Positions 3 through 33,976 of a stretch of DNA of 64,000 bases are shown in pieces. The translations under genes and the position numbers were made by a program. Position 1 is the first letter of the stretch. Every line of letters starts with the position of its first letter. Under the pieces are notes generated by a model, which ran no database searches, had not been told where the DNA came from, and worked only from the letters and a program-made list of their open reading frames with translations. The stretch covers positions 4,576,001 through 4,640,000 of the forward strand of contig OZ244960.1 of the NCBI GenBank assembly GCA_965222605.1, in the 5' to 3' direction. The DNA comes from Candidatus Latescibacterota bacterium. GTDB taxonomy: Bacteria; Latescibacterota; UBA2968.

Positions 3-1001
3 CGGCGAGCGTTCGATGATATGCGGGAGTCAGCACGCGGTTGGGAAGGGCGAGTGGCGGCTTTTAAGACGAGTGATACATCGCCCATTTTAGAAAAGGA
101 CCGCAAGGTGACGGCGGAGTGCAGTGCGTTTTTGCAGGATCGGTCGGCGGATGATAAGCCGTTCTTTTTGCTGGCCGGTTATCTGGCGCCGCATTTTCCA
201 TTGACTATTCCAGAAGCGTATTACGCGCCTTACAAAGACAAGGTGCCCATGCCCGAGATTCCCGAGGATTTTTTGGAGACGTTGCCGACCAATTACAAGC
301 ATTTGCGAGCTGGGTTTGGCGTGACAAAGGCGACGCCCGAGCAGACGAAATTGGGGCGCGAGCTTTACTGGGGCTTTGTGAATTGGCTGGACGATGAGAT
401 CGGCAAGTTGCTTTCCGCACTCAATGATTCCGAAGTGGCGGATAATACAATTGTGATTTACTGCACGGATCACGGCGAGAACAAGGGCGATCATGGGTTG
501 TGGTGGAAGAATAATATGTATGAACACGCTTCGCGGATGCCGCTGATTGTGTCTTATCCAAAACGCTGGGCTGGTGGGCAGCGGCGGACGGGTGTGTGTT
601 CACTGGTGGATCTGGCGCAGACAATAGCGGAGATCGGCGGGGCGGAACGGTCAGATGACTGGGATGGCGAGTCGCTGCTCAATTATCTGGACGATGGGAA
701 TAGCGATTGGCGGGATATTGCGGTGAGCGAATACTATGGCCACAATATTGCGTCGGGCATGGCGATGATTCGGCAGGGGCCATGGAAATACGTGTATCAC
801 ACGCGGTTTGACGAGGTGCATGGACCCGAACGCGAGTTGTACAATTTGGAAGAGGATGCCGGGGAATTTAACAATCTGGCAAATGATCCCGCGCAGGCAG
901 ATCGCATCTCGAAATTGCACGATTTGTTGGCGAAGGAGTTGAGACGCGATCCCGAAGAGGCCGAAGCGCAAAGCCGAGCGGATTTGGCGAAGGGGTATTG
1001 A
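3..1001 (+). CDS. Sulfatase-family hydrolase (choline-sulfatase-like), 5' partial
   Basis: PFFL..GY.APHFP, YCTDHGE..GDHGLW.K..MYE.A.R.PLI and ELYNL..D.GE..NLA motifs; frame is open to the window edge. Confidence 0.85.
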   Translation, partial: RRAFDDMRESARGWEGRVAAFKTSDTSPILEKDRKVTAECSAFLQDRSADDKPFFLLAGYLAPHFPLTIPEAYYAPYKDKVPMPEIPEDFLETLPTNYKHLRAGFGVTKATPEQTKLGRELYWGFVNWLDDEIGKLLSALNDSEVADNTIVIYCTDHGENKGDHGLWWKNNMYEHASRMPLIVSYPKRWAGGQRRTGVCSLVDLAQTIAEIGGAERSDDWDGESLLNYLDDGNSDWRDIAVSEYYGHNIASGMAMIRQGPWKYVYHTRFDEVHGPERELYNLEEDAGEFNNLANDPAQADRISKLHDLLAKELRRDPEEAEAQSRADLAKGY

Positions 1002-3103
1002 TGGACCTATCGCTATATGAAATGATCTGGCTGGTCGGCGCGGCGCTTGCCGCCGGGTTGCTCTGGGGCATTTTTGTCTCGGCGATAAAGCGGAAGGGCA
1101 CGCCGCTTCCGCTTTTGTTGTTGATTTCAGCGGGGGCACTCTGGTACACTGGAGACGCGCTGCGCATTTTGATTGAGCAGGCGGCGCCGGATGCTGGTGC
1201 AGTGAATTATGCGGCGCATGTGGCGCGTTTTGGGCTCGATTTTTTGCCTTCTGCGCTGTTGGCAACGGTGCTGGTTTTTGCAGATGAGCACAAGATGGCG
1301 CGTGGGTTGCGGCGGTATCTCCTGCCTATCACTTTTGTGCCGGGGATAATCATTTTTTTGATTGGCATGTCTCAAGCACCGATCAAGCGCGTGAGTTTTA
1401 GCCTGTATGCCATCGCTATGCTTCTGTTTTCGGCGTATCTCTGCCGGGGATTTGCGATGAGGTCGGAGACAGAGGTGCATAAGGTGTTTTACCGTTTGAT
1501 GGCCTTCGCGCTGACGGGTATCGCGGTTTTGACGGTTTTTGCCTATCCGCTTGGGTTGCTCCAAAGTGCTGTTGTGGGGCCGGTGCTCGCTCTGGTGCTT
1601 TTTCTTTCGCCGATCGTGCCGGCGTATATTCTGGGTTATTTTATTTATCGGTACAGCTTTTTCCAGATTGTTGTGAATCCCGCGTTGTTTTATTCTGCGT
1701 TGACAGGTATTGTGTTGACGGTTTATTTGCTTGTGATTCGGCGCGTTGCAGAGGCATTGGGACGTCTGGACAGTGGGTTCAGGGTAGAGGTGGTTGAGGC
1801 TATTTTGATTTCGCTGTTGATTTTTCTGTTTCAGCCAATTAAGAATCGGTTGCAGGGGATAATCAATCGCCTGTTTTTCAGGGCGCGCTACGAATACCAG
1901 CATTTGCTGGGTACGTTGAGTCAAACGCTGAATGTGCCGCACGCGCTGGAGAGGCGGTTGAAGTCGGTGGTAGATGCGGTTGGAACTGTATTGAAGGTAC
2001 ACGCTGTTTCGCTGGTGGTGTTCGAGTACGAGGAGGGGCGGGTCAGTCAGGTGGAGGTGATCGCAAGCAGTGGTTTGCCAGGGTTTGATCCATCACCCAC
2101 GCCGTTTGAGGGAGAAGACGGGAGGCAGATCGAAGCGGTGGTCGGCTGGCTGTTGGCTCACCGCCGCCCGCTGGATGTAGGCGATTTGCACTATCCGGCA
2201 CTTACTGCAATACTGGCAAAGCAAGGGGTTGAATTGTGTATTCCGGTGTTGCAAGAGGAAAAGCCGGTTGGTTTGCTCTGTCTGAGTGAGAAGAAACGCG
2301 GGGGATCTTTTTCGTCTGAAGAATGGGATTTGCTCGGTACGCTTTGCAATCAGATTGCATTGGCGGTTGAAAATACGCGCCTGGTGGAGCGGCGGTTGCA
2401 ATTGGAGCGGCAGATGTACGAGGCGGAGCGGCTTTCGGCGTTGGGGTTGCTTTCGGCGAGTATTGCGCACGAGGTGAAGAATCCCCTGAGTTCGATCAAG
2501 GCGATTGCGACTGTGTTGCGGGAGGATTTGCAAGATGACCAGACAAAGGTGGGCGATTTGTCTGTGGTGTTGCGCGAGATTGATCGGCTAAACCGCGTGG
2601 TAGATCGCTTGCTCAGATTTGCCCAACCCAAGCAGGACGATGGGTTTCAGGCGTTGGACCTGAAGGCTGTGCTGGAAGATGTGGTGTTGATTTTGTTTCA
2701 CGAGGCGGAGCGACACGGCGTGGAGATCTGTTTTGAGGTGGCGGATGGTCTCGTGGTGAAGGGCGATCCAGAGGATTTAAAGGAAGTGTTTTTCAATTTG
2801 ATTTTGAACGGTATTCAGGCTATGGAAGGCGATTGCACAGAGCGGCGGTTGACGGTGCAGGCGCGGCGGTTGCACGGCGGTGTGGAGGTGCGGGTGTTGG
2901 ATACAGGGTCGGGGATTTCAGAGGAAGGTCAGGCTCGTATTTTTGAGCCGTTTTTCACGACGAAGGCTTCGGGCACGGGCTTGGGGCTTGCGATTGTGAA
3001 GCGCGATGTGGAGCGGATGGGAGGTGCGATTGAGGTGGCAAATGCAGATGGCGCGGGGGCGGTGTTTGCGGTTCAACTTCCCGGGGGGGACGATGCAGTA
3101 TAA
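998..3103 (+). CDS. Membrane sensor histidine kinase (multi-TM N-terminus, GAF, HisKA, HATPase); PrsK-like architecture
   Basis: Hydrophobic N-terminal third; GAF-like segment; SIAHEVKNPL H-box; NLILNGIQA, DTGSGI, FEPFFTTK and GTGLGL boxes. Confidence 0.92.
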   Translation: MMDLSLYEMIWLVGAALAAGLLWGIFVSAIKRKGTPLPLLLLISAGALWYTGDALRILIEQAAPDAGAVNYAAHVARFGLDFLPSALLATVLVFADEHKMARGLRRYLLPITFVPGIIIFLIGMSQAPIKRVSFSLYAIAMLLFSAYLCRGFAMRSETEVHKVFYRLMAFALTGIAVLTVFAYPLGLLQSAVVGPVLALVLFLSPIVPAYILGYFIYRYSFFQIVVNPALFYSALTGIVLTVYLLVIRRVAEALGRLDSGFRVEVVEAILISLLIFLFQPIKNRLQGIINRLFFRARYEYQHLLGTLSQTLNVPHALERRLKSVVDAVGTVLKVHAVSLVVFEYEEGRVSQVEVIASSGLPGFDPSPTPFEGEDGRQIEAVVGWLLAHRRPLDVGDLHYPALTAILAKQGVELCIPVLQEEKPVGLLCLSEKKRGGSFSSEEWDLLGTLCNQIALAVENTRLVERRLQLERQMYEAERLSALGLLSASIAHEVKNPLSSIKAIATVLREDLQDDQTKVGDLSVVLREIDRLNRVVDRLLRFAQPKQDDGFQALDLKAVLEDVVLILFHEAERHGVEICFEVADGLVVKGDPEDLKEVFFNLILNGIQAMEGDCTERRLTVQARRLHGGVEVRVLDTGSGISEEGQARIFEPFFTTKASGTGLGLAIVKRDVERMGGAIEVANADGAGAVFAVQLPGGDDAV

Positions 3104-4484
3104 AATTCTGGTTGTGGATGATGACCCTGCGGCGCGGTATGGGTTGAAGCGGGCACTGGCGGTGCTGGGGTGTGAGATTGTCGAAGCAGAGGATGGGGTG
3201 GCTGCGCTGGCGGCTGTGGCGCAGGGCAATCCCGATTTGTTGATTTGCGATATCCAGATGCCGAAGATGGATGGGTTGACGCTGGTGAAGCGATTGGCTG
3301 ATCAGGGGGATGCGCGACCGGTTATTGTGATTACGGCGTATGGGTCGGAGCGGATTGCGGTGGAGGCGATGAAGGCGGGTGCGTACGATTATTTGAGCAA
3401 GCCCTACGATGTGGATGAGCTTCGCTGTTTGGTGGAGAATGTGCTGGAGACGGTGCGGTTGCGGCGGGAGAATGAGACGCTTCGCAACGCGCTTCGGCAG
3501 CAGTCGGGGTTCGGGTTGTTGATTGGTCGCAGCCGCGCGATGGAGAAGGTTTATGATTTGATCGGCAAGGTGGCTACGACCGATGCAGGGGTGCTGATTA
3601 GCGGGGAGAGTGGTACGGGAAAGGAATTGGTTGCGCGGGCGATTCACGAGCAGAGCGGGCGAAAGGCGTGGCCTTTTGTCGCGGTGAATGCGGCAGCGCT
3701 GCCGACGGAGTTGATCGAGAGCGAGTTGTTCGGGCATGAGAGAGGTGCATTTACCGGGGCGACTGCGCGGCGGCAGGGCAAGTTTGAGCTTGCGGATGGG
3801 GGGACCCTGTTTTTAGACGAGATCGGCGATATGCACGTCGAGACGCAGGCGAAGTTGTTGCGCGTGTTGGAGGAGCAACAATTTGAGCGCCTGGGCGGTT
3901 CGGAGACGGTGACGGTCGATGTGCGGATTATCAGCGCGACGAATAAGGATTTGCCGGTGGAAATTGCGGAAGGACGGTTTCGGGAGGATCTTTTTTATCG
4001 CTTAAAGGTGGTGGATATTTTTTTGCCGCCTTTGCGGGATCGGCGCGAGGATATTCCGTTGCTTGTTCAGCATTTTTTGGCGCGTTTTAATGAACAGCAC
4101 GGCAAGGCGATGGCAGATGTGCCGCCGGATGTGATGAAGATGCTGATGGTGTATGCATGGCCGGGCAATATACGGGAGTTGATGCACGCGGTTGAGCGGG
4201 CGGTTATTTTTTCAGATGGGTCCGAGTTGAGTCGCGATTTGCTTCCTCAGGAGGTTCGGGGCGTTGAGTCTGTGGAGAGCGAGGAGTCTGTCTGGCGAGA
4301 TGGGGTGTTTTTTCAAGATGCAAAGCATGAGGTTGTGCAGTCTTTTGAGGTTGCGTTTATTCGATCCGCCTTAGAATACTACAATGGCAATATCAGCCGT
4401 ACGGCACCGGCTATTGGTATGAAACGGCAGGCGTTGCAACAGAAGTTGAAGGAGCACGGGATCGATCCCGGGATTTATCGGTAA
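3093..4484 (+). CDS. Sigma-54-dependent NtrC-family response regulator
   Basis: Receiver ILVVDDD...DIQMPKMDG; Walker A GESGTGKE; GAFTGA; WPGNIREL; C-terminal Fis-like HTH; ATG at 3093 overlaps the kinase end. Confidence 0.95.
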   Translation: MQYKILVVDDDPAARYGLKRALAVLGCEIVEAEDGVAALAAVAQGNPDLLICDIQMPKMDGLTLVKRLADQGDARPVIVITAYGSERIAVEAMKAGAYDYLSKPYDVDELRCLVENVLETVRLRRENETLRNALRQQSGFGLLIGRSRAMEKVYDLIGKVATTDAGVLISGESGTGKELVARAIHEQSGRKAWPFVAVNAAALPTELIESELFGHERGAFTGATARRQGKFELADGGTLFLDEIGDMHVETQAKLLRVLEEQQFERLGGSETVTVDVRIISATNKDLPVEIAEGRFREDLFYRLKVVDIFLPPLRDRREDIPLLVQHFLARFNEQHGKAMADVPPDVMKMLMVYAWPGNIRELMHAVERAVIFSDGSELSRDLLPQEVRGVESVESEESVWRDGVFFQDAKHEVVQSFEVAFIRSALEYYNGNISRTAPAIGMKRQALQQKLKEHGIDPGIYR

Positions 4485-4509
4485 TAAAATTTTCAATCTG
4501 TTTGACGAG

Positions 4510-4543
4510 TCCGGAGATACACATTGTGTCTCCGGATTTTTTT
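4510..4543 (+). terminator. Rho-independent terminator after the response regulator
   Basis: TCCGGAGATAC-ACATT-GTGTCTCCGGA followed by T7; identical copy at 24372-24405. Confidence 0.8.
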
Positions 4544-4553
4544 GTGTCTGTCA

Positions 4554-4591
4554 TGCAATACGGGGTTTGCAGGTGCAATATAGGATTTGCA
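4554..4591 (+). promoter_or_regulatory. Tandem enhancer (UAS) sites TGCAATA-N5-TTTGCA, copy 1
   Basis: TGCAATACGGGGTTTGCA (4554-4571) and TGCAATATAGGATTTGCA (4574-4591), 20 bp period, upstream of a -24/-12 promoter. Confidence 0.75.
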
Positions 4592-4653
4592 GTATTTGGA
4601 GGATTTTGGGGTGGATAGCAGGGAAAATGGCCTTTTCAGGGGTAAAACGGTTT

Positions 4654-4669
4654 TGGCACAGGATTTGCA
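4654..4669 (+). promoter_or_regulatory. Sigma-54 -24/-12 promoter, copy 1
   Basis: TGGCAC-AGGAT-TTGCA matches the TGGCAC-N5-TTGC consensus. Confidence 0.85.
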
Positions 4670-4693
4670 TATGACGTGTTGTGACCGAGTAGT

Positions 4694-4747
4694 AAGCAGG
4701 CTGATGCGGTTCCGAAAAATGATAGCCTTCAGCAGGTGGAGATATAG
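4694..4747 (+). pseudogene. 3' remnant of the flippase-like gene (paralog of 26219-26272)
   Basis: Encodes KQADAVPKNDSLQQVEI* versus KRADEMPENDSLQQVEI* at the end of 25262-26272. Confidence 0.85.
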
Positions 4748-4763: not shown

Positions 4764-4920
4764 TTCTGTCCAAATTATTGAATGTGACTACTCCCAACGC
4801 TAAAGCGCTCTGCGAGTGGGCTTCTTGGCGGTCAAACCGCCTGACGTTGTAGCCCCAACGTCAATATGTTTATGGCAGCATTGAGGTCTCTGTCTGCTGT
4901 ATAGCCACACTGTTTGCAAT
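4764..4920 (-). ncRNA. Predicted omegaRNA/reRNA of TnpB (5' boundary approximate)
   Basis: Position expected from known TnpB biology: overlaps the tnpB 3' end and right end; guide would be the flank ATTCAATAATTTGGACAGAA. Confidence 0.55.
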
Positions 4921-6160
4921 GATGCACACGATCAGAGAGTTTTTTCTTTTCTCTATGTCCGCATGCCGAGCAATCTTGTGACGTGTATTCAGGCTTGACG
5001 GCCTTGAATCCAATACCAGCCTCTTCCGCTTTGTATTCGAGACAGTGCCGAAACAGGGACCATGCTGCGTCTGCTATTGATTTAGACAATCGCCCGTTCT
5101 TTTGCATCTTTTGAACTTTCAACTTCTCGACGGCTATGAAGCCGTAGCGATTGACCATTTTTCTTGATTCTTGATGGGCAAAGTTATGTCGCTTATTACG
5201 GATACGCTCATGCACTCTGGCAATGACTTTACGTCGCTTTTCTCTTACGGCGTCAGTTTTAGGTCTTTTTTTCACCGCGTCCCATTTGCGCTGTGCTTTG
5301 GCAAGCGTCTTTTCTTCTTTGCGAAAGAATCGCTGGTTGGCTATTGTCTGCCCGTCACTGGTTACAGCAAAGGAATTGAGACCCACGTCAATGCCAACAG
5401 CAGAGTTAGTATCGGTTTTCTTACTTATGTCGCCAATATCACAAGGGATAGATGCATACCATTTACCCGTCGCCGTGCGAGTGATAGTGCAAGACTTTGC
5501 AATGCCGCCGAGAGGTCTATGCTGGACAACGCGAATACAGCCTATTTTGCTCAATCGCAAGCCCTTGCCGTCCAATCGGCAACCGCTGGAAAAATTAGGA
5601 TAGGTAATAGAATCATAGCGATTCTGTCCCTTATATCTGGGAAAGCCAGCTTTCTCGCCAGTCTTTGCCCTCTCTTTGAAGCGACGAAAGAAACCTTTGA
5701 ACGCCAAATCCACTCTTGCTGATACTTGTTGCAATACCTGACTATATACTTGCGTAAATTCAGCATGTTGTTGCTTCAGCAATGGTATCGTATTCGTTTG
5801 GTCATACTTTGACAGGGACTTATTCTCATTTTTCCATGCTTGCTTTCTGGCACAGAGGAGTTGGTTGTAGAGAATGCGACATTCGTCAATATGTGCCAGC
5901 AAGATTTTCTCTTGCTTTTTGGTCGGGCGCAATCTGTATTTAAATGACTTAACCATAAGTAAAATATATATTTATATGCCTTTTCTGTCAAGCAAAACTA
6001 AAGGACTATTCTTGTTGATTCACCGCCCACATTGTCTTGAACAATGTGCCGCCATGCTAAAGCACCAACCCATAGATTCGTAGAGCCACTTGCAAAACAA
6101 CGCTCGCTAACTCGCGTCTGTTTCCCAACGCTAAAGCTGTTGGGTTTTACGGGCTATCCG
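4784..6160 (-). mobile_element. IS200/IS605-family element carrying only tnpB (IS1341-type)
   Basis: tnpB ORF; subterminal CCCAACGCTAAAGC hairpin motif at both ends (4793, 6124); right end ...GGGAGTAGTCAC; left end preceded by TTTAT; no tnpA. Confidence 0.75.
4832..5956 (-). CDS. tnpB: RNA-guided endonuclease TnpB
   Basis: N-terminal FKYRLRPT; RuvC I GIDVG, RuvC II AVEKL, zinc finger CSACG...CKQCG, RuvC III DRDLNAAINI; all catalytic residues present. Confidence 0.95.
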   Translation of the reverse strand: MVKSFKYRLRPTKKQEKILLAHIDECRILYNQLLCARKQAWKNENKSLSKYDQTNTIPLLKQQHAEFTQVYSQVLQQVSARVDLAFKGFFRRFKERAKTGEKAGFPRYKGQNRYDSITYPNFSSGCRLDGKGLRLSKIGCIRVVQHRPLGGIAKSCTITRTATGKWYASIPCDIGDISKKTDTNSAVGIDVGLNSFAVTSDGQTIANQRFFRKEEKTLAKAQRKWDAVKKRPKTDAVREKRRKVIARVHERIRNKRHNFAHQESRKMVNRYGFIAVEKLKVQKMQKNGRLSKSIADAAWSLFRHCLEYKAEEAGIGFKAVKPEYTSQDCSACGHREKKKLSDRVHHCKQCGYTADRDLNAAINILTLGLQRQAV

Positions 6161-6410: not shown

Positions 6411-8516
6411 ATGAGGAACGAAATGCGATTTTTTTGTACGGTACAAAAGCTGATTTTGATTTCTGCACTCCTGTCCATCCCACTTCTGATTTATCCCTCA
6501 TCTCTGACCCTGCGGGCCAACGCCGCGCTACAACCAACCCTGAAATCTGACTTTGATGCAGATGGTAGCGTTGGATTTTCCGACTTTTTGCTATTTGTAG
6601 AATTGTTTGAGGCCAATCGAGGTGATGAGCTATATCAAGCCAGGTACGATCTGGATGATGACGGCACCATTGGGTTTGGCGATTTTTTGATCTTTGTCAA
6701 CGACTTTGGCAAAGTAATATCACCTCGTCCTTATTATCAGACGATGAACCTACCCGATGGCGCAATCGCCCGCTTGGGAAAAGGAGATATTTCTTATTCT
6801 GAAGTCGCGTTCTCGCCCAATGGAGAACAGTTAGCTGTGGCAAGTAACATTGGCATTTGGCTTTACGATGTGGCAACCACCTGTGAAGTCGCGCTACTCA
6901 CTGAACATGAATATACGCCTTGGATCGAGGCTGTCGTATTCTCGCCTGATGGGGCTACGATCGCTTCTACGGAATACCACACAGTCAAACTGCGGGATGC
7001 CAAAACAGGACGACTAACTGCCACGCTTGGACATAACCGTGGTGTATTCACTGTCGCATTCTCGCCTGATGGGGCGACAGTCGCTTCGGCTGGATACGCC
7101 CCGGTTACGCTCTGGGATGCCAAAACAGGACACATGATTGCCACACTTGAAGGACCTGATTCTATCGTCCTCTCTGTTGCGTTCTCACCTGATGGCACCA
7201 CGATCGCTTCGGGGGGACACGACAACACAGTCAGGCTGTGGGATACCAAAACAGGACGCCTGATCTCTACACTCGAAAGACATTGGGATGACGTTACCTC
7301 TGTTGCGTTCTCACCTGATGGCACAACACTCGCCTCGGCGTCACGAGACGACACAGTCAAACTGTGGGATACCAAAACAGGACGCCTGAAGGCTACACTT
7401 GAAGGACATACGTCTGCCGTCCACTCAGTCGCATTCTCACCCGATGGTACCACAATCGCTTCTGGGGCACAAGATTACACAGTCAGGCTGTGGGATGCCG
7501 AAACAGGACGCCTGACCGCCACACTTCAAGGGCATACAGATGGCGTTCACTCTGTCGCATTTTTACCCGATGGCACGATACTCGCCTCGTTGTCACTAGA
7601 CGGCACAGTCAAACTGTGGGATACCAAAACAGGACGCCTGATCTCTACACTCGAAGGACATACGTCTACCGTCCACTCAGTCGCATTCTCACCTGATGGG
7701 ACCACGATCATTTCAGGGTCAGGAGCATCTGATGACATAGCCAGTATTTGGGATGCCGAAACAGGACACCTGAAGGCTACACTTGAAGGACATACGTCCT
7801 GGATCACTTCTGTCGCGTTCTCACCCGATGGTACCACAATCGCTTCTGGAGCACAAGATTACACAGTCAGGCTGTGGGATGCCGAAACAGGACGACTGAC
7901 CGCCACACTTCAAGGGCATACGGGTAGAGTTACCTCTGTGGCATTCTCACCCGATGGTACCACGATCGTTTCGGGGGCAATAGATGGCACTGTTAGACTG
8001 TGGGATGTCGAAACAGGACGACTGACTACCACCCTCGAACATATAGATTGGCTCAACTCTGTGGCATTCTCACCCGATGGCACTACACTCGCTACGGGGG
8101 TAGGTGATGGCACTGTTAGACTGTGGGATGTCGAAACAGGACGACTGACTACCACCCTCGAACATATAGATTGGCTCAACTCTGTTGCGTTCTCACCCGA
8201 TGGTACCACGATCGCTGCAGCGGGAGGGTGGTCTGTTAGTCTCTGGGATGTCGAAACGGGACGCCTGAATGCCACACTCGAACATATACGGGACATTGGC
8301 AACCTCGTCTATGTTGCGTTCTCGCCTGACGGCAAGACTATTGCTTCGGTGGGACAAAAAACGATCAATCTTTGGAATACCGACACAGGACACCTGATCT
8401 CCACATTTGAAGGGCATACATCTAATATCACTTCTGCGTCATTTTCGCCCGATGGGACAATAATCGCGTCAAGTTCATGGGATGGCACGATTCTCCTGTG
8501 GGCATTGCTTAAGTGA
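6411..8516 (+). CDS. Secreted WD40-repeat protein with an N-terminal paired EF-hand/dockerin-like module
   Basis: Signal-like N-terminus; DFDADGSVGFSDF...DLDDDGTIGFGDF (6549-6713); about 14 GH...SVAFSPDG...LWD repeats. Confidence 0.9.
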   Translation: MRNEMRFFCTVQKLILISALLSIPLLIYPSSLTLRANAALQPTLKSDFDADGSVGFSDFLLFVELFEANRGDELYQARYDLDDDGTIGFGDFLIFVNDFGKVISPRPYYQTMNLPDGAIARLGKGDISYSEVAFSPNGEQLAVASNIGIWLYDVATTCEVALLTEHEYTPWIEAVVFSPDGATIASTEYHTVKLRDAKTGRLTATLGHNRGVFTVAFSPDGATVASAGYAPVTLWDAKTGHMIATLEGPDSIVLSVAFSPDGTTIASGGHDNTVRLWDTKTGRLISTLERHWDDVTSVAFSPDGTTLASASRDDTVKLWDTKTGRLKATLEGHTSAVHSVAFSPDGTTIASGAQDYTVRLWDAETGRLTATLQGHTDGVHSVAFLPDGTILASLSLDGTVKLWDTKTGRLISTLEGHTSTVHSVAFSPDGTTIISGSGASDDIASIWDAETGHLKATLEGHTSWITSVAFSPDGTTIASGAQDYTVRLWDAETGRLTATLQGHTGRVTSVAFSPDGTTIVSGAIDGTVRLWDVETGRLTTTLEHIDWLNSVAFSPDGTTLATGVGDGTVRLWDVETGRLTTTLEHIDWLNSVAFSPDGTTIAAAGGWSVSLWDVETGRLNATLEHIRDIGNLVYVAFSPDGKTIASVGQKTINLWNTDTGHLISTFEGHTSNITSASFSPDGTIIASSSWDGTILLWALLK

Positions 8517-24453: not shown

Positions 24454-24517
24454 CTGATTGGGCGATTTTTGGGGTGGATAACAGGGAAAATGGCCTTTTT
24501 TCAGGGTAAAATGGTTT

Positions 24518-24533
24518 TGGCACGGGATTTGCA
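24518..24533 (+). promoter_or_regulatory. Sigma-54 -24/-12 promoter, copy 2
   Basis: TGGCAC-GGGAT-TTGCA, upstream of an AAGGAGG RBS and ATG 24590. Confidence 0.88.
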
Positions 24534-24589
24534 TATGACGTGTTGTGACCGAGTAGTTTGAGATGTGAACCTTTGTGAAGGAGGCTGAG

Positions 24590-26325: not shown

Positions 26326-26853
26326 ATGACACGCTCGATTTCTTGCCTGATCTGTCTCTTTTTGATTGTAACCTTCAGTTTCCCGGCAGAGGGAAAAAAA
26401 ACAGATCTCACCAAAAGTTATGGTATTGGACTTCAGGGAGCTACACCCACATTTGGTGGCATTAGTTTTCGCTATAACGGACTGGCACCCGTATATCTTC
26501 AAACCGTTGGGCGTTTTATTATCAATGGTCAGGATAGTGACCATATGTTAGGTGCTGGTGTTTCATATGCCATATTTGAGCATCAAGGCAGGTGGAACAT
26601 AGCCCGACTTTATTTCACTTTAGAAGGCGGCTGGCAATACAAAAAAGAGGAGGATCTCCATCAAGAGATTATTAAAACCACGACGCTGGGAACTGGACTC
26701 GCTTTTGGAGGCGATATTGTGTTTTCACTTGGGGGGATTCCTCTTGGCTTGAACGTGGAAATCGGTCAAGGGTTTGGTAGGAAAAAAACCAGCTCTCAAT
26801 CTAAGGGCCTTGCTGGCGTCTATGTAGGCGGGGGAATACATGCCTATTTTTAG
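26326..26853 (+). CDS. Small outer-membrane beta-barrel-like protein
   Basis: Signal peptide, alternating Gly/aromatic strands, terminal IHAYF. Confidence 0.6.
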   Translation: MTRSISCLICLFLIVTFSFPAEGKKTDLTKSYGIGLQGATPTFGGISFRYNGLAPVYLQTVGRFIINGQDSDHMLGAGVSYAIFEHQGRWNIARLYFTLEGGWQYKKEEDLHQEIIKTTTLGTGLAFGGDIVFSLGGIPLGLNVEIGQGFGRKKTSSQSKGLAGVYVGGGIHAYF

Positions 26854-26972
26854 ATCTCCTTTTTTAGATATAGCAACCATCCACACGAGTGGGTCAGGTG
26901 AGCCAGAGCAGTAGGGACTTCCAAAGAATGTCCGTCTGGGGTACTCTACGTCAAAACATGAAGGAGAGATTT

Positions 26973-28100
26973 ATGAAAAAATTAATAGCTGCCTTTGTAA
27001 CCGCGGCCCTCCTGCTCAACGCGATGGCTTCCACACTTGCACACGCAGCCACATACTTGCAAGATGCAGAGGTCAATGCCAATACGCTGATTCGAGATGC
27101 TTATGTGCAAGTCACCTATTACGATAGCAATGGAGAACAGAAATTGGCGAAGGGGTGGATTGACACTATTGGTGAGACCACATTTAAGATTCGAGGCAGG
27201 GCACTTTTCGGAAAGAAGACCATTGCTTACGACATAGTCCTGTCAGTGATCATGAGCGAAGAATCAACAACACGAGGAAAGCAAATCAATGAGGTAGATC
27301 GGTTTATTCGAGACATGAAAAAACGAGAGGCAAGAGCGTTAGAAACAGAGCAAGCCGCTATACAACGGCTCAATCAGGAAGCTGTGACGATCATATCTCG
27401 CGGACAGATTGATTCTTCAAAGATTACGAAGGGATGGTATGCCCATGTCGTCTATACATCGCAAGGTGCCACAGGAACTGCAACCAGCCGAATTGCGGAC
27501 AAGGACTCAAGCCGTATTGCGCTCAAATATGGGTTTGATACCTATAATATAAACTATGATGACATCGATACCCTCGTGGTTGACAAACAGTGGCGCGATA
27601 TCGAAAGGTATCGAGAAATCGGCGCGAAGTACGATGCCAGAGTACGTTTCAAAGCGCCTTCAGTTTCAAGAAGGCGGATAACGGGCAGACTCATCAATGT
27701 GACGCAAGACACTCTTATTATCGAAGCTGGACGTACACTGTATCAGGTACCCGTTTCTTCAATCTCCAATCTTGAAGTCAGCACCTTAAGATATAACAAA
27801 GGCTTTAAAATCGGGCTTGGTGCCGGAGCCGTCATCATTGGATTCACAAGTATATATACATATAGAGAAAAAAAGCGTATTGACCAGAGCAGTGGCGATA
27901 CCAGTCTCGCATATTACACCCTTGGTATCGCAACATTAGTGGGATATTCCGCTGGTGCATTTGTATGTCTTCTCTCCACTCTCATTGGTGCTACAATAAA
28001 ATCCGACAAATGGGTCGAAGTGCCACCACAACGTCTCAACCTGAGCCTTGCGCCCACATCCACAAAAGGGCTTCGCGCTGCGCTTACGTTTAATTTTTGA
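26973..28100 (+). CDS. Secreted protein: modules A+D+E, Gly-rich helices, beta-hairpin tail
   Basis: AAGGAG RBS; signal ending LAHA-A; ends RLNLSLAPTSTKGLRAALTFNF. Confidence 0.7.
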   Translation: MKKLIAAFVTAALLLNAMASTLAHAATYLQDAEVNANTLIRDAYVQVTYYDSNGEQKLAKGWIDTIGETTFKIRGRALFGKKTIAYDIVLSVIMSEESTTRGKQINEVDRFIRDMKKREARALETEQAAIQRLNQEAVTIISRGQIDSSKITKGWYAHVVYTSQGATGTATSRIADKDSSRIALKYGFDTYNINYDDIDTLVVDKQWRDIERYREIGAKYDARVRFKAPSVSRRRITGRLINVTQDTLIIEAGRTLYQVPVSSISNLEVSTLRYNKGFKIGLGAGAVIIGFTSIYTYREKKRIDQSSGDTSLAYYTLGIATLVGYSAGAFVCLLSTLIGATIKSDKWVEVPPQRLNLSLAPTSTKGLRAALTFNF

Positions 28101-28152: not shown

Positions 28153-29337
28153 ATGGTACGAATAGCAGCAATCGTTTGTATGTTAAGCGTATGTATGCCA
28201 GAGACCTCCCTGGCAAGGGAGACCTTTGAAGCTGGTGAGATTGATAGCAGCACAGTTAAACCAGGTGCTTTTGTCGAGATTATCTATGGGAAGGGCGAGC
28301 GGGATACGGTGTCAGGAGAGTGGGAGGGACTGAATACGGCAAGGGGATATATTCAAGCTATTGATGCGGAGCGGTTGATCATTGGCGAACAGTTTTGGAA
28401 GAAGGAGATCGCATTAGATCGCGTTCAAAAGCTGACGATTTTAGGAGTTGTCCGCGATGTGAAAAAGTCAGCGTTAGAGACAGCGCAAACCGCTATACAA
28501 CGTTTCGATCAGAAGGCCATTGCGATTATGGCACGGGGGGAGATTGACACGTCAAAGATCGCGACGGGATGGTATGCTCAGGTCGTTTATACATCAGACG
28601 GGGATAGAGGAACTGCAATGGGAAAGATTATCGGCAAGAACTCAGATCGTATTGTGATCCAGAGTAGGGATAGTTTTTGGAGAAACTGGAAAATAGCATA
28701 CAGTGATATTGATACACTCGTTGTAGCGAAACGGCAAAGAGACATTGAAGGGCGAAGAGATTCAAGAACAAAGAGCAGGCGCGGTGCAGGATTGAATATT
28801 GAAATTGGCTGGAATGGTGGCGTCAATCCCTATGATATTTACTGGATATCTAACCCCGGAGGAGGTGCGTATGCCGCGGGCTTCGACACACAAACGAGAC
28901 AGCCGTGGTCAGTTTCCTGTTATTTTGGTCGTTTTCTTACGGGTGAGAGGCGTGGGCGATTGGGGATAAAATATATCCGGCAGATAGTAGAAGCAGATAA
29001 AAGGGGTCGTTATCCCGGACGCTATCGCCTCTGGATGTCATCGCTGCTGTTGAATTATCAATTTGTGGTTCTAAGAAGCACGGCAGGTATCGTAGTGGCT
29101 GAGATTGCGATGGGTAGATCGCTCACGAATGACGACTTCAGGTACTGCGATGGGGTCTGTTTTCCCGCATCCAGTACGCACATCTCTTCCGGGCTTGCGT
29201 TCATACTGCCTATCCATCGGAGTATTGGCGTGCAGGCTGTGGTGCGAGCAAATTTATACAAGCCAAAGCCGAACGAATCCATCACGCCTTTTAAGTCGGG
29301 AATATCGTTGGCTATTGGACCGCTTTTAGAGTTTTAG
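28153..29337 (+). CDS. Secreted protein: modules B+D plus a small beta-barrel
   Basis: FEAGEIDSS...GYIQAIDAE; module D shared with 26973; ends SLAIGPLLEF. Confidence 0.7.
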   Translation: MVRIAAIVCMLSVCMPETSLARETFEAGEIDSSTVKPGAFVEIIYGKGERDTVSGEWEGLNTARGYIQAIDAERLIIGEQFWKKEIALDRVQKLTILGVVRDVKKSALETAQTAIQRFDQKAIAIMARGEIDTSKIATGWYAQVVYTSDGDRGTAMGKIIGKNSDRIVIQSRDSFWRNWKIAYSDIDTLVVAKRQRDIEGRRDSRTKSRRGAGLNIEIGWNGGVNPYDIYWISNPGGGAYAAGFDTQTRQPWSVSCYFGRFLTGERRGRLGIKYIRQIVEADKRGRYPGRYRLWMSSLLLNYQFVVLRSTAGIVVAEIAMGRSLTNDDFRYCDGVCFPASSTHISSGLAFILPIHRSIGVQAVVRANLYKPKPNESITPFKSGISLAIGPLLEF

Positions 29338-29382
29338 GAATTGTCCCAGGATGAAATATCACGAGTTCAATTGGAAAAGGTA

Positions 29383-30357
29383 ATGACCATGAGACGATAT
29401 ACGCTACTTGGGCTATGCACTCTGATTGGGTTGATGGCAGGTGAGGGATCAGCCCAGGAGCCTGTCAGTATAAAGAGAACGGGGTTCACTTTTTTGCAGT
29501 TTCCTACCAATGCCCGCACGGCAGCTTTGGGTGAGGCTGGCGTGGGGTTGATCGAGAGTGGGCAGGCTATTTTGTACAATCCAGCGGGACTGGCTTTTAT
29601 GGAAGATCGGGAAGCGTATTTTACGTATATCGATTGGATTTTTAGTACCAAGAATTACGTGGCTGGCGTTTCAGCAAATGTGCTGCGTGTAGGGACATTT
29701 GGACTTTCTGTCTTGAATCACGATGTCGGTCCTATCAGGTTCGAGAATACCACGCAAGAGATCAGCGAGTATGCCATTTCCGTGGCTTATGGGGGCATGA
29801 TTATCAATCGGATTGCGGTGGGAACCACCCTCAAGCTGATTCATCAAGGCTTTCCTGAGTTCACGCAAAATGTCTTTGCCTTTGATTTGGGTACGTATTT
29901 TGCCACGGGATTTCGGAATACGGTGATTGCGATGGGCGTGGAGAACTTGAGCACGAGCGGGTTAGGCGAGCCAGAGCGATGGGGACTTCCGAAGAATGTG
30001 CGGCTGGGTGTGCTCCTTGATTTGATTGCGCTGATAGATTTCGGTCCCCTGCCCCACGCTCTGGACCTGGTCGTAGATGTGAATAATCCAAATGATTCTG
30101 AGGATGGCTTCTACACGGATATAGGTGTCGAATATACATATATGTATCATACCGCCATAGGCGACAAGTTGGGATTTTCGCTGCGAGGAGGGAAAAGAAA
30201 AAGGCCCCGTAGTCTAATAGATCCCTATACCCTGGGTATTGGGGTGCAGTTTAAGACCGGTGGTTTAGGTTTGAAGGTGGATTACGCGAGCAAGTCCTTT
30301 GACGCCTTTTACGATGGTGAACGGGTGCATATTCTCAGCGTTGCGTTTGATTTTTAG
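29383..30357 (+). CDS. PorV/PorQ-family beta-barrel protein
   Basis: FTFLQFPTNARTAALGEAG...YNPAGLA; AFDLGTYF.TGFR; ends SVAFDF. Confidence 0.82.
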   Translation: MTMRRYTLLGLCTLIGLMAGEGSAQEPVSIKRTGFTFLQFPTNARTAALGEAGVGLIESGQAILYNPAGLAFMEDREAYFTYIDWIFSTKNYVAGVSANVLRVGTFGLSVLNHDVGPIRFENTTQEISEYAISVAYGGMIINRIAVGTTLKLIHQGFPEFTQNVFAFDLGTYFATGFRNTVIAMGVENLSTSGLGEPERWGLPKNVRLGVLLDLIALIDFGPLPHALDLVVDVNNPNDSEDGFYTDIGVEYTYMYHTAIGDKLGFSLRGGKRKRPRSLIDPYTLGIGVQFKTGGLGLKVDYASKSFDAFYDGERVHILSVAFDF

Positions 30358-30389
30358 AACAAGGATTAATGATTCGAAAAGGGGAACTC

Positions 30390-31619
30390 ATGGCACGAAT
30401 AGCTACAATCGTTTTGATGCTGGGCATGTGTCTGCCTGAGACCTTGCTGGCAGGGGTGGTCTTTGAAGCCGGTGAGATTGATAGCAGCACAGTTAAACCC
30501 GGTGCCTATGTCGAGATCATCTATGGGAAAAGAGAGCGGGATCCAGTATCAGGAGAGTGGGAGAAATTGGATACTGTAAAAGGATATATCAAAGCCATTG
30601 ATGCGGAGACTTTGACTATTGGTGAACGGTTTTGGAAAAAGAAAATAGAGTTAGAGCGCATCCAAAAGCTGACGATTCCAGATGCTGATGGCGAGATGGA
30701 CAGGCTCAGGGGGATTGACTTGCCTTTCGGATCACGGACATTGCAGACGAAGATCATTTTAGAAGCGGGTGAGATTGATAGCAGCAGGGTTGCAGTCGGT
30801 GCTTATGTCGAGGTCATCTATGGGAAGGGGAAGCGGGATGCGGTGTCAGGTGAGTGGGAAGGAGAAAAGAAAGTAAAAGGATATGTCAAAGCTGTTGATG
30901 CAGAATATTTGATTATTGGCGAACGGTTTTTGGAAGAGCAGATCGCATTGGAGCGCGTTCAAAAGCTGATCATTTTAGACGCTGCTGACCGGGAGATGGA
31001 CAAGCTCAGACAGCCAACAGATTCGCTTTCAGTGAGAACAAAGAACGGGCATGGGATAAGGCTGTTATTTGAAACTGGCTATTTTACGGGCGTTAGAACA
31101 GAATTTCTGGATCTCTACTTCGGTGGATCGATAGGTAAAAAAGGACTGCCCTGGTCTGTGTCTCTTTTATTTGCTGATGCGAGACGTTGGAGACTTGCTC
31201 TGAGAGGTGCCTATCGGAAAATTCAGGTATTCGGAAGATATACCCAGGCCGAACTCGCGGAGCGATTTCCCCTTGCTCCCAGGAGCGAATCCATTCGGCA
31301 TAGAGATGGCGTCACCTACCGGTTGGTTTCGGTGTTGCTGGCCTACCAACGTGTTATTCATAGAAGCACGCGAAGTGTCGTGCTGGCGGATCTTGCAGGC
31401 GGAATAGCGTATAGGAGTTCTTTTTTTAATAATGGGGGGGAGCCGGTGGAATCTTCCAGAAATTTTTTATGCTGGTCTGCGGGAGTTGCTTTTCTGATGC
31501 CTGTCCATTCGCGCGTCAGTCTGCAAGCCAGTGTGCGGAAAGATTTTTTGGTGGGGTATTTCCCAGATCCTTTTATTTCGGGGATGTCGTTGACTATTGG
31601 ACCGCTTTTAGAGTTTTAG
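30390..31619 (+). CDS. Secreted protein: modules B+B plus a small beta-barrel
   Basis: Two EAGEIDSS repeats; ends SLTIGPLLEF. Confidence 0.7.
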   Translation: MARIATIVLMLGMCLPETLLAGVVFEAGEIDSSTVKPGAYVEIIYGKRERDPVSGEWEKLDTVKGYIKAIDAETLTIGERFWKKKIELERIQKLTIPDADGEMDRLRGIDLPFGSRTLQTKIILEAGEIDSSRVAVGAYVEVIYGKGKRDAVSGEWEGEKKVKGYVKAVDAEYLIIGERFLEEQIALERVQKLIILDAADREMDKLRQPTDSLSVRTKNGHGIRLLFETGYFTGVRTEFLDLYFGGSIGKKGLPWSVSLLFADARRWRLALRGAYRKIQVFGRYTQAELAERFPLAPRSESIRHRDGVTYRLVSVLLAYQRVIHRSTRSVVLADLAGGIAYRSSFFNNGGEPVESSRNFLCWSAGVAFLMPVHSRVSLQASVRKDFLVGYFPDPFISGMSLTIGPLLEF

Positions 31620-31669: not shown

Positions 31670-32662
31670 ATGAGACGATATACTCTAATTGGGCTATGCA
31701 CACTGTGTATATGGCTCATAGCGGGTGAGGGGTTTGCTCAGACGGTTATCAGGTCAACGGGGTACGACGTTTTATTTCGTCCCAACAGTGGCCGCACCGC
31801 TGCTTTGAGTGAGGCGGGTGGGGGGTTGATCGGAAGCGGGCAAGCTATTTTTTATAATTCCGCAGGACTGGCTTTTATGGAAGGTCGGGAAGCGTATTTC
31901 ACTTACGTAGATTGGATTAGTGGTTCCAAGAACTACGTAGCTGGCCTTGCAGCAAATGTGTCAGGCAAAGGGACATTCGGGATTTCTGCGGTGAATCTCG
32001 ATAACAATGATGAGAATGAGAGCGAATATGCTATTTCTGGGGCTTATGCGTTCAATATTACCCGTCGGATTGCGGCGGGAGCCACCGTCAAGCTGGTACA
32101 TCGTGACTATTTCAAATATGTTCGGGATGGTTTTTTTGATGAATATCCTGACACAACTGAAAAATATATTCACAATTTTTTTGTTTTTGATGTGGGCGCG
32201 TATTCCGTGGGGGTTCAGAATCTGGTTATGGCACTGAGCGTGCATAACTTGAGTTCGGGTGGGTTAGGCAAGCCAGAGGAGTTGGAGCTTCCAAAGATTA
32301 TCCGTCTGGGGGTGCTCATTGATGTGATTTCGCTGACGGGTATGAGGCCCTTGCCACATATGCTGGACCTGGTCCTGGATGTGAATACAGAGATCAATTT
32401 CGACGAGGCTGTTGAACTGAATATGGGCATGGAATATACGTATTTGTACCGGGCTGCGAGCTATTCCTTAGGCGTCTCGCTGCGAGGAGGACGAAGATCC
32501 AGAGGGTCCTGGAGTTCTGCAAATCCCATTACCTGGGGAGGTGGATTGCAGTTTAAGACCAACGGAGGTCGAGGTGTAAAGGTGGATTACGCAAGAAAGT
32601 CCTTTAATTATCGTATCGAGGATCCGCAAGTGCATATCTTCAGCGTTGCTTTCAATTTTTAG
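31670..32662 (+). CDS. PorV/PorQ-family beta-barrel protein
   Basis: GRTAALSEAG...FYNSAGLAF; ends SVAFNF. Confidence 0.78.
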   Translation: MRRYTLIGLCTLCIWLIAGEGFAQTVIRSTGYDVLFRPNSGRTAALSEAGGGLIGSGQAIFYNSAGLAFMEGREAYFTYVDWISGSKNYVAGLAANVSGKGTFGISAVNLDNNDENESEYAISGAYAFNITRRIAAGATVKLVHRDYFKYVRDGFFDEYPDTTEKYIHNFFVFDVGAYSVGVQNLVMALSVHNLSSGGLGKPEELELPKIIRLGVLIDVISLTGMRPLPHMLDLVLDVNTEINFDEAVELNMGMEYTYLYRAASYSLGVSLRGGRRSRGSWSSANPITWGGGLQFKTNGGRGVKVDYARKSFNYRIEDPQVHIFSVAFNF

Positions 32663-32695
32663 AGCGTGGTTCACTGATTCGGAAGGGGGGAACTC

Positions 32696-33631
32696 ATGGT
32701 GCGAATAGCTGCAATCGTTTTGGTGCTAAGCGTGTCCTTGCCACAGGTACTGTTGGCAGGGGTAGTCCTTAAATCCGGTGAGATTGACAGCAGAAAGGTT
32801 GAAGTCGGAGCCTATGCCGAAGTCATCTATGGGACGGGTGAGCGGCATCTACTCTCAGGAGAGTGGAAGAAACTGGAGACTGTAAGAGGATACATTAAAG
32901 CCGTTGATGCGGAGACTTTGACCATTGGACGCGGTTTTTGGAAGGGGCAGATAGCCTTTGATAGCATACAAAAGCTGATCCTTGCAGAGTCTGACCGCGA
33001 AATAGACAGGCTTAAAGAGACGACTGATTCGCTTTCTGTAAGGAAAGAGAACAGGCGTGGAACTGGGCTAATGTTTGAAGTCGGCTGGAACCAGGGAATC
33101 AACACATCCTCTCGAAACATCTTCTCAGGATATCCTTCCTACCTTGACCGCAGACAGAAATCACAAGAAGGACTACCCTGGTCTTTATCTTTTTATCTTG
33201 GCCGTATGATTTCGAGTGAGAGATCTTCGCGATTTGGACTGAAATATACTCGTCAAGTAGTGCAGATATTACCAATAAATCCCAATGGCTTTCCCCCTGA
33301 GCCCAGAGATGGCAAAACATATAAGTCATTATCGCTGTTGCTGGTTTACCAACGTGTCGTTAAACGTAGCCCGCGTGTTGTCATGCTCGCAGATTTTGCA
33401 GTAGGTATAGCATTGATAAACAACTATTTCAATAGCGACAGCCCCTGTAACTACTTGTGGGACTGCATTCCTGAAATCGGTTCACGCTACTCTGCCGGGA
33501 TGGCATTTCTACTGCCCAGTAACGCACATATCGGTCTGCAAGCCACTGTGCGAGCAGACTTACTGAGGGTAAAACATAAGTATCCTTTCACTTCGGGAAT
33601 GTCAGTGGCATTTGGACTCCTGTGGGAGTAG
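32696..33631 (+). CDS. Secreted protein: module B plus a small beta-barrel
   Basis: SGEIDS...GYIKAVDAE; barrel paralogous to 28153 and 30390. Confidence 0.7.
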   Translation: MVRIAAIVLVLSVSLPQVLLAGVVLKSGEIDSRKVEVGAYAEVIYGTGERHLLSGEWKKLETVRGYIKAVDAETLTIGRGFWKGQIAFDSIQKLILAESDREIDRLKETTDSLSVRKENRRGTGLMFEVGWNQGINTSSRNIFSGYPSYLDRRQKSQEGLPWSLSFYLGRMISSERSSRFGLKYTRQVVQILPINPNGFPPEPRDGKTYKSLSLLLVYQRVVKRSPRVVMLADFAVGIALINNYFNSDSPCNYLWDCIPEIGSRYSAGMAFLLPSNAHIGLQATVRADLLRVKHKYPFTSGMSVAFGLLWE

Positions 33632-33648
33632 AGATATTATCCCACATT

Positions 33649-33915
33649 TTACACACGCTGTTTGGCTGGCCGCGCTGGCACGCCCATCAACATGCCTTCT
33701 GCGCTGATGTCTTCATCAATATCCGGCCAATGAACGCCCTGACCGTCGCCGATAAATTCATAGTTTGCACGTTGAGCAGGTGTTGCGTCTGCAAGTCGCC
33801 AGGACCAAACGAGCGGTACGCTGATTGTTCGACCATCCACCAAATCCGCGATGATCAATTCCTCAGTGATCTTGATGGCTTTGATGCGAGGTTCCGTATT
33901 ATTCACAGTGTTCAC
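33649..33915 (-). CDS. DUF2442-family protein (putative antitoxin)
   Basis: L.DGRTISVPL.WS.RL..AT..QR.NYE..GDG.GVHWPDIDEDIS. Confidence 0.88.
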   Translation of the reverse strand: MNTVNNTEPRIKAIKITEELIIADLVDGRTISVPLVWSWRLADATPAQRANYEFIGDGQGVHWPDIDEDISAEGMLMGVPARPAKQRV

Positions 33916-33976
33916 GCCATGCCTCCAAAATTATCACGTAGTGCGATTGGATCAACCGCCGGATTTCATTCAATTT
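33899..33976 (-). pseudogene. C-terminal fragment of a DUF4160-like partner gene
   Basis: KLNEIRRLIQSHYVIILEAWREHCE* overlaps the DUF2442 start; the 5' part is missing and the modA stop abuts it. Confidence 0.7.

Follow-up and report, generated by a model that had tools for sequence, protein, structure and literature searches.

A gene cluster in a 64-kb stretch of DNA from a Candidatus Latescibacterota bacterium (the window; the cluster extends from ~1 kb to 33.6 kb) looks, as judged from its sequence, like a means of attaching proteins to the cell envelope that has not been described before. We propose that it represents a lineage-specific Latescibacterota envelope system built of two nested units, a cargo-anchor cassette and a regulated core. 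In the cassette, a gene for an exported protein with a dockerin module (the cargo) is followed by a gene for a predicted outer-membrane protein with Sm-like modules (the anchor). The reading that we prefer, with a probability of roughly 0.4, is that of a tagged-cargo/cognate-anchor system, in which the product of the next gene downstream reads the dockerin as a tag for targeting or retention. The original prediction for this DNA had described a regulated display apparatus of five co-oriented gene families; all five were found, on the + strand, and the regulation, the modularity and the cargo-anchor coupling held up, whereas the idea of a single obligate unit did not.

Related loci were retrieved by a genome scan through anchor searches, which gave 16 loci (designated by L numbers) from 11 assemblies, all titled as Latescibacteria or Latescibacterota metagenome-assembled genomes (MAGs). 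A hidden Markov model (HMM) of the window's four dockerin modules, run on the window and the 16 loci, revealed 23 open reading frames (ORFs), 20 of which had the module at the C-terminus, one of them off the edge of its locus. An anchor gene was located directly downstream of 17 of the 19 assessable C-terminal-dockerin ORFs, with a spacing that ranged from overlap to 224 bp; one truncated and one split anchor are included in the 17. The two exceptions were the window gene at 13202-18046, which is followed by a second dockerin gene and then by an anchor, and one truncated fragment without an anchor. Intact full-length pairs were present in several genomes at 47-87% protein identity (L002, L009, L005, L015). 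In L005, L006 and L016, the pair was surrounded by unrelated genes, and the locus DNA examined contained neither a regulator nor a lipid or PorV-like gene. The neighbourhood comparison thus upheld the coupling of dockerin to anchor and spoke against the five families forming one obligate unit. Two dockerin classes, WD40-type and immunoglobulin (Ig)-type, could be distinguished by alignment. Module-D anchors occurred only after WD40-type dockerins (4/4) and Module-E anchors only after Ig-type dockerins (6/6), and anchors of the 26889-28100 type followed both classes (WD40-type, one; Ig-type, three).

The dockerin-like module shared by three WD40 proteins of the window comprises ~65 residues, and all three proteins, as well as the pseudogene that had been proposed beside them, were found. 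In the related loci, PF00404 was reported in 10 of the 12 cargo ORFs scanned; eight of the 12 reached the curated cutoff of 22.9 bits and two more scored 22.0. Two tandem calcium-loop segments (DFDGDG...DF and DLDGDG...DF) were kept in all 21 aligned dockerin modules. On these sequence features, the tag is a real dockerin in the relatives. The module is not always C-terminal, as it is near the N-terminus in one window cargo, in the L009 orthologue of that protein and in one propeller protein of L007. When five cargo pieces were scanned against NCBIfam, we found no type IX secretion system (T9SS) C-terminal domain at E <= 0.01, and the scan gave just weak sub-cutoff matches to NF041540 (dockerin_GC).

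Full-length cargo carries signal peptides and is varied in its other domains. Because it has a complete metzincin zinc motif, HELGHAFGLQHD, the 13202-18046 product is, from its sequence, probably a protease rather than a plain repeat protein, and it also gave a Reprolysin_5 match above the cutoff. Outside the core, proteins with He_PIG, PKD, SprB-repeat or fn3 domains were found in 8 of the 12 ORFs scanned. A search with the WD40-type module returned 377 clusters of 558-1778 amino acids (aa); among the 120 of these that were listed, most had WD40 repeats, many also with PF12044 and Big_1, four contained Peptidase_M4, two Beta-lactamase, and several leucine-rich repeats (LRR) or Big_1 alone. 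Three dockerin ORFs of 80-85 aa, together with several of 253-331 aa, lack a signal peptide and start within an Ig domain. The three short ORFs, each consisting of the end of an Ig domain and the dockerin (L001 6239-6490 and 9716-9958; L004 9710-9967), have an anchor gene directly downstream and may represent silent cassettes or products of decay. Many of the cargo copies are remnants truncated at the 5' end, and the cassettes are therefore in flux. In the window, the pseudogene at 8642-9194 showed 80% and 72% identity to two parts of the 13202-18046 protein, and its 5' end is homologous to the starts of both large WD40 genes.

The membrane part of the anchors is predicted to be either an OmpA-like 8-stranded barrel or four Gly-rich helices with a C-terminal beta-hairpin. 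AlphaFold2 models were made for one anchor of each kind, 21224-22087 on a 38-row alignment and 32696-33631 on 13 rows, and structural matches were identified with Foldseek. The model of 21224-22087 (mean predicted local distance difference test (pLDDT) score 70) contained the signal peptide, a disordered linker, a small beta-barrel at residues 69-133 (pLDDT ~88), a helix, then four helices rich in Gly at 155-257 (pLDDT 85-91) and, with low confidence, a C-terminal hairpin; its best matches were Hfq, Tudor and SH3-like barrels, all weak (E 0.015-0.09). The model of 32696-33631 (mean pLDDT 70) had an N-terminal small barrel, a helix and eight strands at residues 123-310, and matched the OmpA transmembrane domain (E 7.6e-5 to 4.8e-4), NspA (TM-score 0.71 on the target), OprF-N, Ail and OmpX. 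As modelled, its C-terminal domain has the features of an 8-stranded outer-membrane beta-barrel. Both models agree with the Sm/SH3-like modules, small barrels and beta-hairpin tail that had been read from the sequence. The split anchor at 11653-13157 has an intact relative, P0134 (495 aa), which reads through the frameshifted stretch.

A search with the 32696-33631 anchor gave 119 protein clusters, none with a Pfam domain, and the only name among them was "hypothetical protein" of Gemmatimonadetes or Gemmatimonadota MAGs. About 90 of the 119 matched in the N-terminal module alone (~70% identity, residues 1-120) and ran on into a Gly-rich region and a tail of the pattern RRxSxGLxPxxxGxxSAxATLRF. 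Since these clusters join a shared N-terminal module to the Gly-rich/hairpin part, the Sm-like modules have been shuffled between the two kinds of membrane part. The profile of the Gly-rich anchors retrieved 798 cluster representatives (50% identity) at E <= 1e-3, 412 at <= 1e-10 and 131 at <= 1e-30. A Pfam scan of 97 of the best 150 relatives left 93 without a match; the matches seen in the set were one weak Gly-zipper_YMGG, one LRR and one RVT_N. Among 10 distant relatives whose clusters were looked up, one was named, as a hypothetical protein of a Gemmatimonadetes MAG, and a protein atlas look-up of the anchor had a best score of 0.85 with every match unnamed. Two family members have unusual starts: P0199 (462 aa) has a cargo-type LRR domain fused ahead of the Sm module, and P0173 (436 aa) has an LRR-like start in the same position with no Pfam match. 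We also observed a third beta-rich C-terminal domain of ~150 aa, ending ...ALEFRISA[IV]R, which substitutes for the 8-stranded barrel in anchors preceding PorV-like genes (L008 217-1710; L009 9953-11074; L010 10001-11077; L011 5999-7147).

The regulated core begins with a sensor kinase gene and an NtrC-type activator gene, a pair that had been predicted and that is borne out by its Pfam domains. The kinase was 93% identical in L002 and L003. Its alignment to the PrsK model TIGR02916 was full-length (aa 15-695) and scored 138.1 bits, under the curated cutoff of 300, and the activator scored 403.2 bits on TIGR02915, under 502.6. With both equivalog cutoffs missed and neither PEP-CTERM nor exosortase genes in the window, the PrsK/PrsR label was not borne out for the pair. 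The receiver domain of the activator opens at residue 34 of the ORF listed from 3006, so the true start is probably near 3099.

The exact motif TGGCAC-N5-TTGC occurred at two sites only in the 64 kb, 4654-4668 and 24518-24532, and both sites read TGGCAC-N5-TTGCA. With up to one mismatch, 12 matches were found against 5.9 expected; the remaining 10 have one mismatch each, and the majority of them lie inside kinase or WD40 coding sequence. The two exact sites are within a duplicated block (188 of 218 aligned columns identical), which bears out the duplicated promoter of the original prediction. In each copy, a strong hairpin leads into a T-run; three TGCAA/TTGCA dyads, which overlap one another, are located 60-100 bp upstream of the -24/-12 element, and the element itself is present as well. 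Hairpin, dyads and -24/-12 element were kept upstream of the lipid-synthase gene in all five related loci that have this gene (L002, L003, L008, L010, L011), and the kinase and activator genes were directly upstream of the block in three of them (L002, L003, L011). In its -24/-12 spacing, upstream activator sites and conservation in relatives, the block corresponds to a predicted sigma-54 promoter. Copy 1, after the activator, is in the ancestral position; it now faces an opposite-strand tnpB gene, and the WD40 block follows 1.7 kb farther on. This tnpB element, which is not part of the system, may uncouple the WD40 block from sigma-54 control. The ORF at 24122-24523 overlaps promoter copy 2 and is probably no gene. 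A Schlafen-type gene (AlbA_2/HATPase_c_4/Fic-like_C; 22647-24116, - strand) was found just ahead of copy 2; a Schlafen/AlbA_2 gene or fragment is located on the opposite strand directly upstream of the block in L008 and L010, and at the far cluster end in L011.

The genes downstream of copy 2 start with the predicted lipid synthase and flippase, both confirmed by their domain matches (CDP-OH_P_transf; TIGR00374 above its cutoff). The phosphatidyltransferase was 93-98% identical in relatives, which begin at the Met of residue 6. The 175-aa protein that follows gave no match in Pfam, NCBIfam or PDB sequence searches and is, by its sequence, probably a small outer-membrane protein. In L002, L003 and L011, the gene order was sulfatase, kinase, activator, promoter block, CDP-alcohol phosphatidyltransferase, flippase-like protein, 175-aa protein and anchors. 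The core proteins were 85-98% identical between the window and its relatives, whereas the first anchor downstream was just 45-72% identical, and each core locus had its own number and order of anchor and PorV-like genes, in line with the modular and polymorphic families that had been predicted. From 24575 to 33631, the intergenic gaps are 3-53 bp and no strong terminator-like site is present within the run, for which a single sigma-54 operon is the simplest reading of the sequence. The predicted regulation of a lipid/anchor/PorV-like operon by sigma-54 is likewise consistent with the conserved promoter and dyads in the five related loci that have this operon.

Three paralogous PorV-like barrels are encoded in the window, as claimed, but only 29341-30357 passed the PorV/PorQ family cutoff (NF033709, 90 bits), and on the equivalog models for PorV (NF033710) and PorQ (NF033711) the window barrels were far under the cutoffs. 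Barrel 1 was 45% identical to the other two copies. The sole PDB sequence match of barrel 2 was PorV (6h3i_F, E 6.4e-4), and its relatives at 41-48% identity carry both PF19572 (PorV) and PF11751 (PorP_SprF), one being named a PorV/PorQ family protein. Of the 15 assessable PorV-like genes in the clusters, 11 stood directly after an anchor with a beta-rich C-terminal domain; by HMM, seven of these 11 anchors match the window's two barrel types, and four carry the third beta-rich domain. A search limited to the window ORFs found none of the T9SS core genes SprA/Sov, PorK-N and PorU.

The two units could work together as follows. The first would consist of a Sec-exported, dockerin-bearing cargo, encoded directly upstream of its anchor and composed of WD40, metzincin and LRR proteins in the window and also of Ig-repeat adhesin-like, M4 protease and beta-lactamase-fold proteins in the relatives. 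The anchor would combine one to three Sm/SH3-like modules with an OmpA-like barrel, or with Gly-rich helices and a closing amphipathic beta-hairpin whose last residue is aromatic. The dockerin would serve, in a calcium-dependent manner, as a tag for targeting or retention that the downstream gene's product recognises, most likely through its Sm-like modules, so that the cargo would be kept at the outer membrane. For anchors whose C-terminal domains are beta-rich, the paired genes are in turn those of PorV/PorP-like barrels. In the second unit, binding of the TGCAA/TTGCA dyads by the kinase and the sigma-54 activator would presumably switch on the conserved -24/-12 promoter, and the transcript would encode the phospholipid synthase, the flippase-like protein and the small exported protein, followed by a series of anchors and PorV-like barrels that varies. 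A bolder form of this scheme, which we consider unlikely, would have the dockerins dock on a non-cohesin receptor, either the Sm-like modules or an oligomeric pore of anchor hairpins, with the 5'-truncated dockerin-anchor cassettes as a silent store that recombines cargo and anchor partners, giving a switchable, sigma-54-controlled surface coat.

Several observations weigh against the tagged-cargo/cognate-anchor reading. The window's own dockerin modules scored 21.2, 18.8, 18.7 and 16.4 bits on PF00404, all under the cutoff, and no cohesin (PF00963) was detected, either in the 51 window ORFs scanned or among 97 anchor-family proteins. Sm modules are absent from some anchors that lie downstream of dockerin fragments (L001 6523-7095 and 7923-8531; L016 4682-5293), and the dispersed cargo-anchor pairs have no sigma-54 promoter. 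The type-wise pairing is no proof of co-evolution, because pairs duplicate as units and related copies share labels. Part of the adjacency count comes from decayed cassettes, as many cargo copies are remnants without a signal peptide, and because the loci were found via their anchors, the count is silent on the share of genomic dockerin genes without one. Both termini of known 8-stranded barrels are periplasmic. By analogy, the Sm-like modules ahead of such a barrel would by default be periplasmic as well, and cargo held there would therefore not be displayed.

The same topology fits a periplasmic envelope scaffold, in which OmpA/Pal-like anchors would bind peptidoglycan or periplasmic partners through their Sm/SH3-like modules, the sigma-54 operon would remodel the envelope with a new lipid and outer-membrane proteins, and the dockerin proteins would be periplasmic clients or loosely related. 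We regard this account as somewhat unlikely. It agrees with the small barrel, helix and OmpA-like barrel predicted for 32696-33631, with the lipid-synthase and flippase-like genes that open the operon, and with anchors that stand alone beside housekeeping genes (L012, L013). However, the strong divergence of anchors among close relatives, compared with the conserved core, would be unusual for a structural tether; the relatives' cargo includes Ig-repeat adhesin-like proteins and M4 proteases, which are usually extracellular; and the adjacency of cargo and anchor would be left to be explained. That adjacency is accommodated if the pairs are dedicated to export, with the anchor, together with the PorV/PorP-like barrel where present, moving its cognate cargo across or along the outer membrane and the dockerin serving as a signal for export or targeting and not as a retention tag. 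The mixed PorV and PorP_SprF affiliation of the PorV-like proteins' relatives points in this direction, and two studies report that T9SS type B substrates often share genetic linkage with, and depend on, PorP/SprF-like shuttle genes (PMC12618676, PMC9143113). We nevertheless find the export reading decidedly unlikely: the cargo pieces matched no T9SS C-terminal domain family, most pairs outside the core have no adjoining PorV-like gene, the dockerin is near the N-terminus in three proteins, and neither an 8-stranded barrel nor a helical bundle is large enough to form a channel alone.

Adjacency could also be debris of recombination between conserved dockerin 3' ends and anchor 5' ends, reflecting the duplication and decay of one ancestral pair with no present functional link. 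Truncated cargo without signal peptides, anchors without modules, split genes, the window pseudogene and insertion sequence elements within or near the clusters are what such a process would leave. This explanation is highly improbable in our judgement, since intact full-length pairs persist at the identities given above, the anchor family comprises 798 cluster representatives, and the pairing spans two dockerin classes and three anchor types.

Compared with described systems, the logic of the tagged-cargo/cognate-anchor reading is closest to that reported for T9SS type B and PorP/SprF in Bacteroidota: cargo is Sec-exported, carries a conserved C-terminal tag and binds or depends on a cognate PorP/SprF-like outer-membrane protein, encoded beside it, by which it is anchored or shuttled, and there are many cargo-specific pairs per genome (PMC9143113, PMC12618676). 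PorV/PorP-like barrels are present in the window too. In contrast, the tag here is a dockerin, with no T9SS C-terminal domain in the five cargo pieces scanned; instead of a PorP/SprF barrel, the partner is a protein in which Sm modules are joined to an 8-stranded barrel or a Gly-zipper/hairpin part; and the PorV-like genes come after anchors and not after cargo.

The binding of cellulosomal dockerins to cohesins depends on calcium. The cluster shares with the cellulosome a duplicated calcium-loop dockerin on varied exported proteins and the logic of a tag and a cell-bound receptor, but it has no cohesin among the 51 window ORFs, it belongs to a diderm with outer-membrane anchors, and its cargo consists of WD40, LRR, Ig-repeat and protease proteins instead of carbohydrate-active enzymes, each with its own downstream anchor in place of a shared scaffoldin. 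To our knowledge, dockerin tags are otherwise known from Gram-positive cellulosomes. Similarity to PrsK/PrsR-PEP-CTERM lies in the full-length PrsK-like kinase architecture, the NtrC-type activator and a sigma-54 promoter before genes for exported envelope proteins, and the difference in the sub-cutoff regulators and in a window without PEP-CTERM tail or exosortase. Relative to OmpA-type proteins, whose barrels the predicted C-terminal domain of the barrel anchors matches together with those of NspA, OprF-N, Ail and OmpX, the domain order is reversed: the soluble domain is N-terminal and Sm/SH3-like instead of OmpA_C, and the barrel anchors have no sequence-level Pfam match. Literature searches on dockerin with outer membrane, non-cellulosomal or Gram-negative gave no natural system of this kind among the matches listed, and those on Latescibacteria with dockerin gave nothing relevant. 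One study of Latescibacterota MAGs refers to WD40 and LRR proteins, and dockerin, cohesin, T9SS and sigma-54 do not appear in its main text (PMC12993501).

Good descriptions of how proteins are attached to the envelope exist for only a handful of model systems, among them T9SS, autotransporters and lipoprotein sorting. A large unannotated anchor family that is genetically tied to a dockerin tag in an uncultured phylum would represent a different solution. If the binding is true, the anchors would be cohesin-independent dockerin receptors and would provide a route that places WD40, LRR and Ig-repeat proteins and proteases on or under the outer membrane, and the compact tag/anchor pair might find use in surface display.

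The features of the cluster are listed below. Pfam domains were scanned in 51 window ORFs, paralogy was taken from all-against-all BLASTP of 27 window ORFs, which grouped three PorV-like proteins, four anchors with beta-rich C-terminal domains, three Gly-rich anchors and three WD40 proteins together with a fragment, and the curated cutoffs used were 300 bits for TIGR02916, 502.6 for TIGR02915, 90 for NF033709, 43.2 for TIGR00374 and 22.9 for PF00404.

Table 1. Features of the cluster in window coordinates; folds and functions are predicted.
Feature	Coordinates	Strand	Basis
Sensor histidine kinase, PrsK-like architecture (multi-TM N-terminus, GAF, HisKA, HATPase_c)	998..3103	+	Pfam
NtrC-type sigma-54 enhancer-binding response regulator	3006..4484	+	Response_reg, Sigma54_activat (243.6 bits), HTH_8
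Promoter block copy 1	4485..4697	+	Hairpin 4507-4539 and T-run; TGCAA/TTGCA dyads 4554-4591; -24/-12 element 4654-4668
IS605-family OrfB/TnpB (tnpB-only element)	4832..5956	-	OrfB_IS605, Cas12f1-like_TNB, HTH_OrfB_IS605
Cargo: WD40 protein, signal peptide, dockerin-like module near N-terminus (aa 41-105)	6411..8516	+	
Cargo pseudogene	8642..9194	+	Signal-peptide 5' end (38 codons, then a stop) fused out of frame to LRR and dockerin 3' end (ORF 8685-9194)
Anchor: two Sm-like modules, beta-rich C-terminal domain of second type	9418..10629	+	Paralogy
PorV/PorQ-family-like barrel 1	10708..11619	+	NF033709 59.5 bits, E 4e-16, under cutoff
Anchor: Sm modules, Gly-rich helices, hairpin tail; split by one-base frameshift near 12193	11653..13157	+	Paralogy
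Cargo: signal peptide, metzincin motif HELGHAFGLQHD at aa 202, WD40 propellers, LRR, Big_1, C-terminal dockerin-like module	13202..18046	+	
Cargo: signal peptide, WD40 propellers, C-terminal dockerin-like module	18068..21118	+	
Anchor: signal peptide, Sm-like barrel (aa 69-133), four Gly-rich helices (155-257), C-terminal beta-hairpin ending RF	21224..22087	+	AlphaFold2, Foldseek, alignment
Promoter block copy 2	24345..24557	+	Hairpin 24369-24401; dyads 24416-24453; -24/-12 element 24518-24532
CDP-alcohol phosphatidyltransferase, PgsA-like	24575..25237	+	PF01066 (CDP-OH_P_transf) 59 bits; TIGR00560 59 bits, sub-cutoff
Flippase-like membrane protein (LPG_synthase_TM/HpnL-like)	25262..26272	+	PF03706 92 bits; TIGR00374 59.3 bits, above cutoff
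Small conserved exported protein, 175 aa, ends YF	26326..26853	+	85-87% identical in all five related core loci
Anchor: three Sm-like modules, two hydrophobic segments, hairpin tail ending FNF; likely start Met 29	26889..28100	+	Paralogy
Anchor: two Sm-like modules, 8-stranded-barrel-type C-terminus	28153..29337	+	Paralogy
PorV/PorQ-family barrel 2	29341..30357	+	NF033709 113.9 bits, above cutoff
Anchor: two Sm-like modules, 8-stranded barrel	30369..31619	+	Paralogy
PorV/PorQ-family-like barrel 3	31670..32662	+	NF033709 67.6 bits, E 1.4e-18, under cutoff
Anchor: one Sm-like module (aa 40-97), 8-stranded barrel (aa 123-310)	32696..33631	+	AlphaFold2, Foldseek

The end coordinate of the original prediction had been supplied by an ORF at 33622-33981, which is antisense to a real DUF2442 gene (33649-33915, - strand; 67.7 bits) and was rejected. 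The DNA of the DUF2442 gene was also kept after the last anchor in L003 and twice in L009, and the L003 copy and one L009 copy have ~200 bp of extra conserved sequence that is not in the window. An Rfam scan of the whole window gave zero matches.

The locus is flanked by two sulfatases and two or three PhyH-type dioxygenases (3-1001, 37890-39407, 51479-53042). Farther along the window, we found a protein with LDL-receptor class B (YWTD) repeats, which are mostly eukaryotic (41426-42811, - strand; 154 bits), a CBM9/DUF5916 protein (43679-46285), a HEAT repeat protein (46375-47832) and a periplasmic pectate lyase (54170-55723). A DDE transposase fragment (DDE_Tnp_1_3; 50247-51032, + strand) is the second mobile-element gene of the window.

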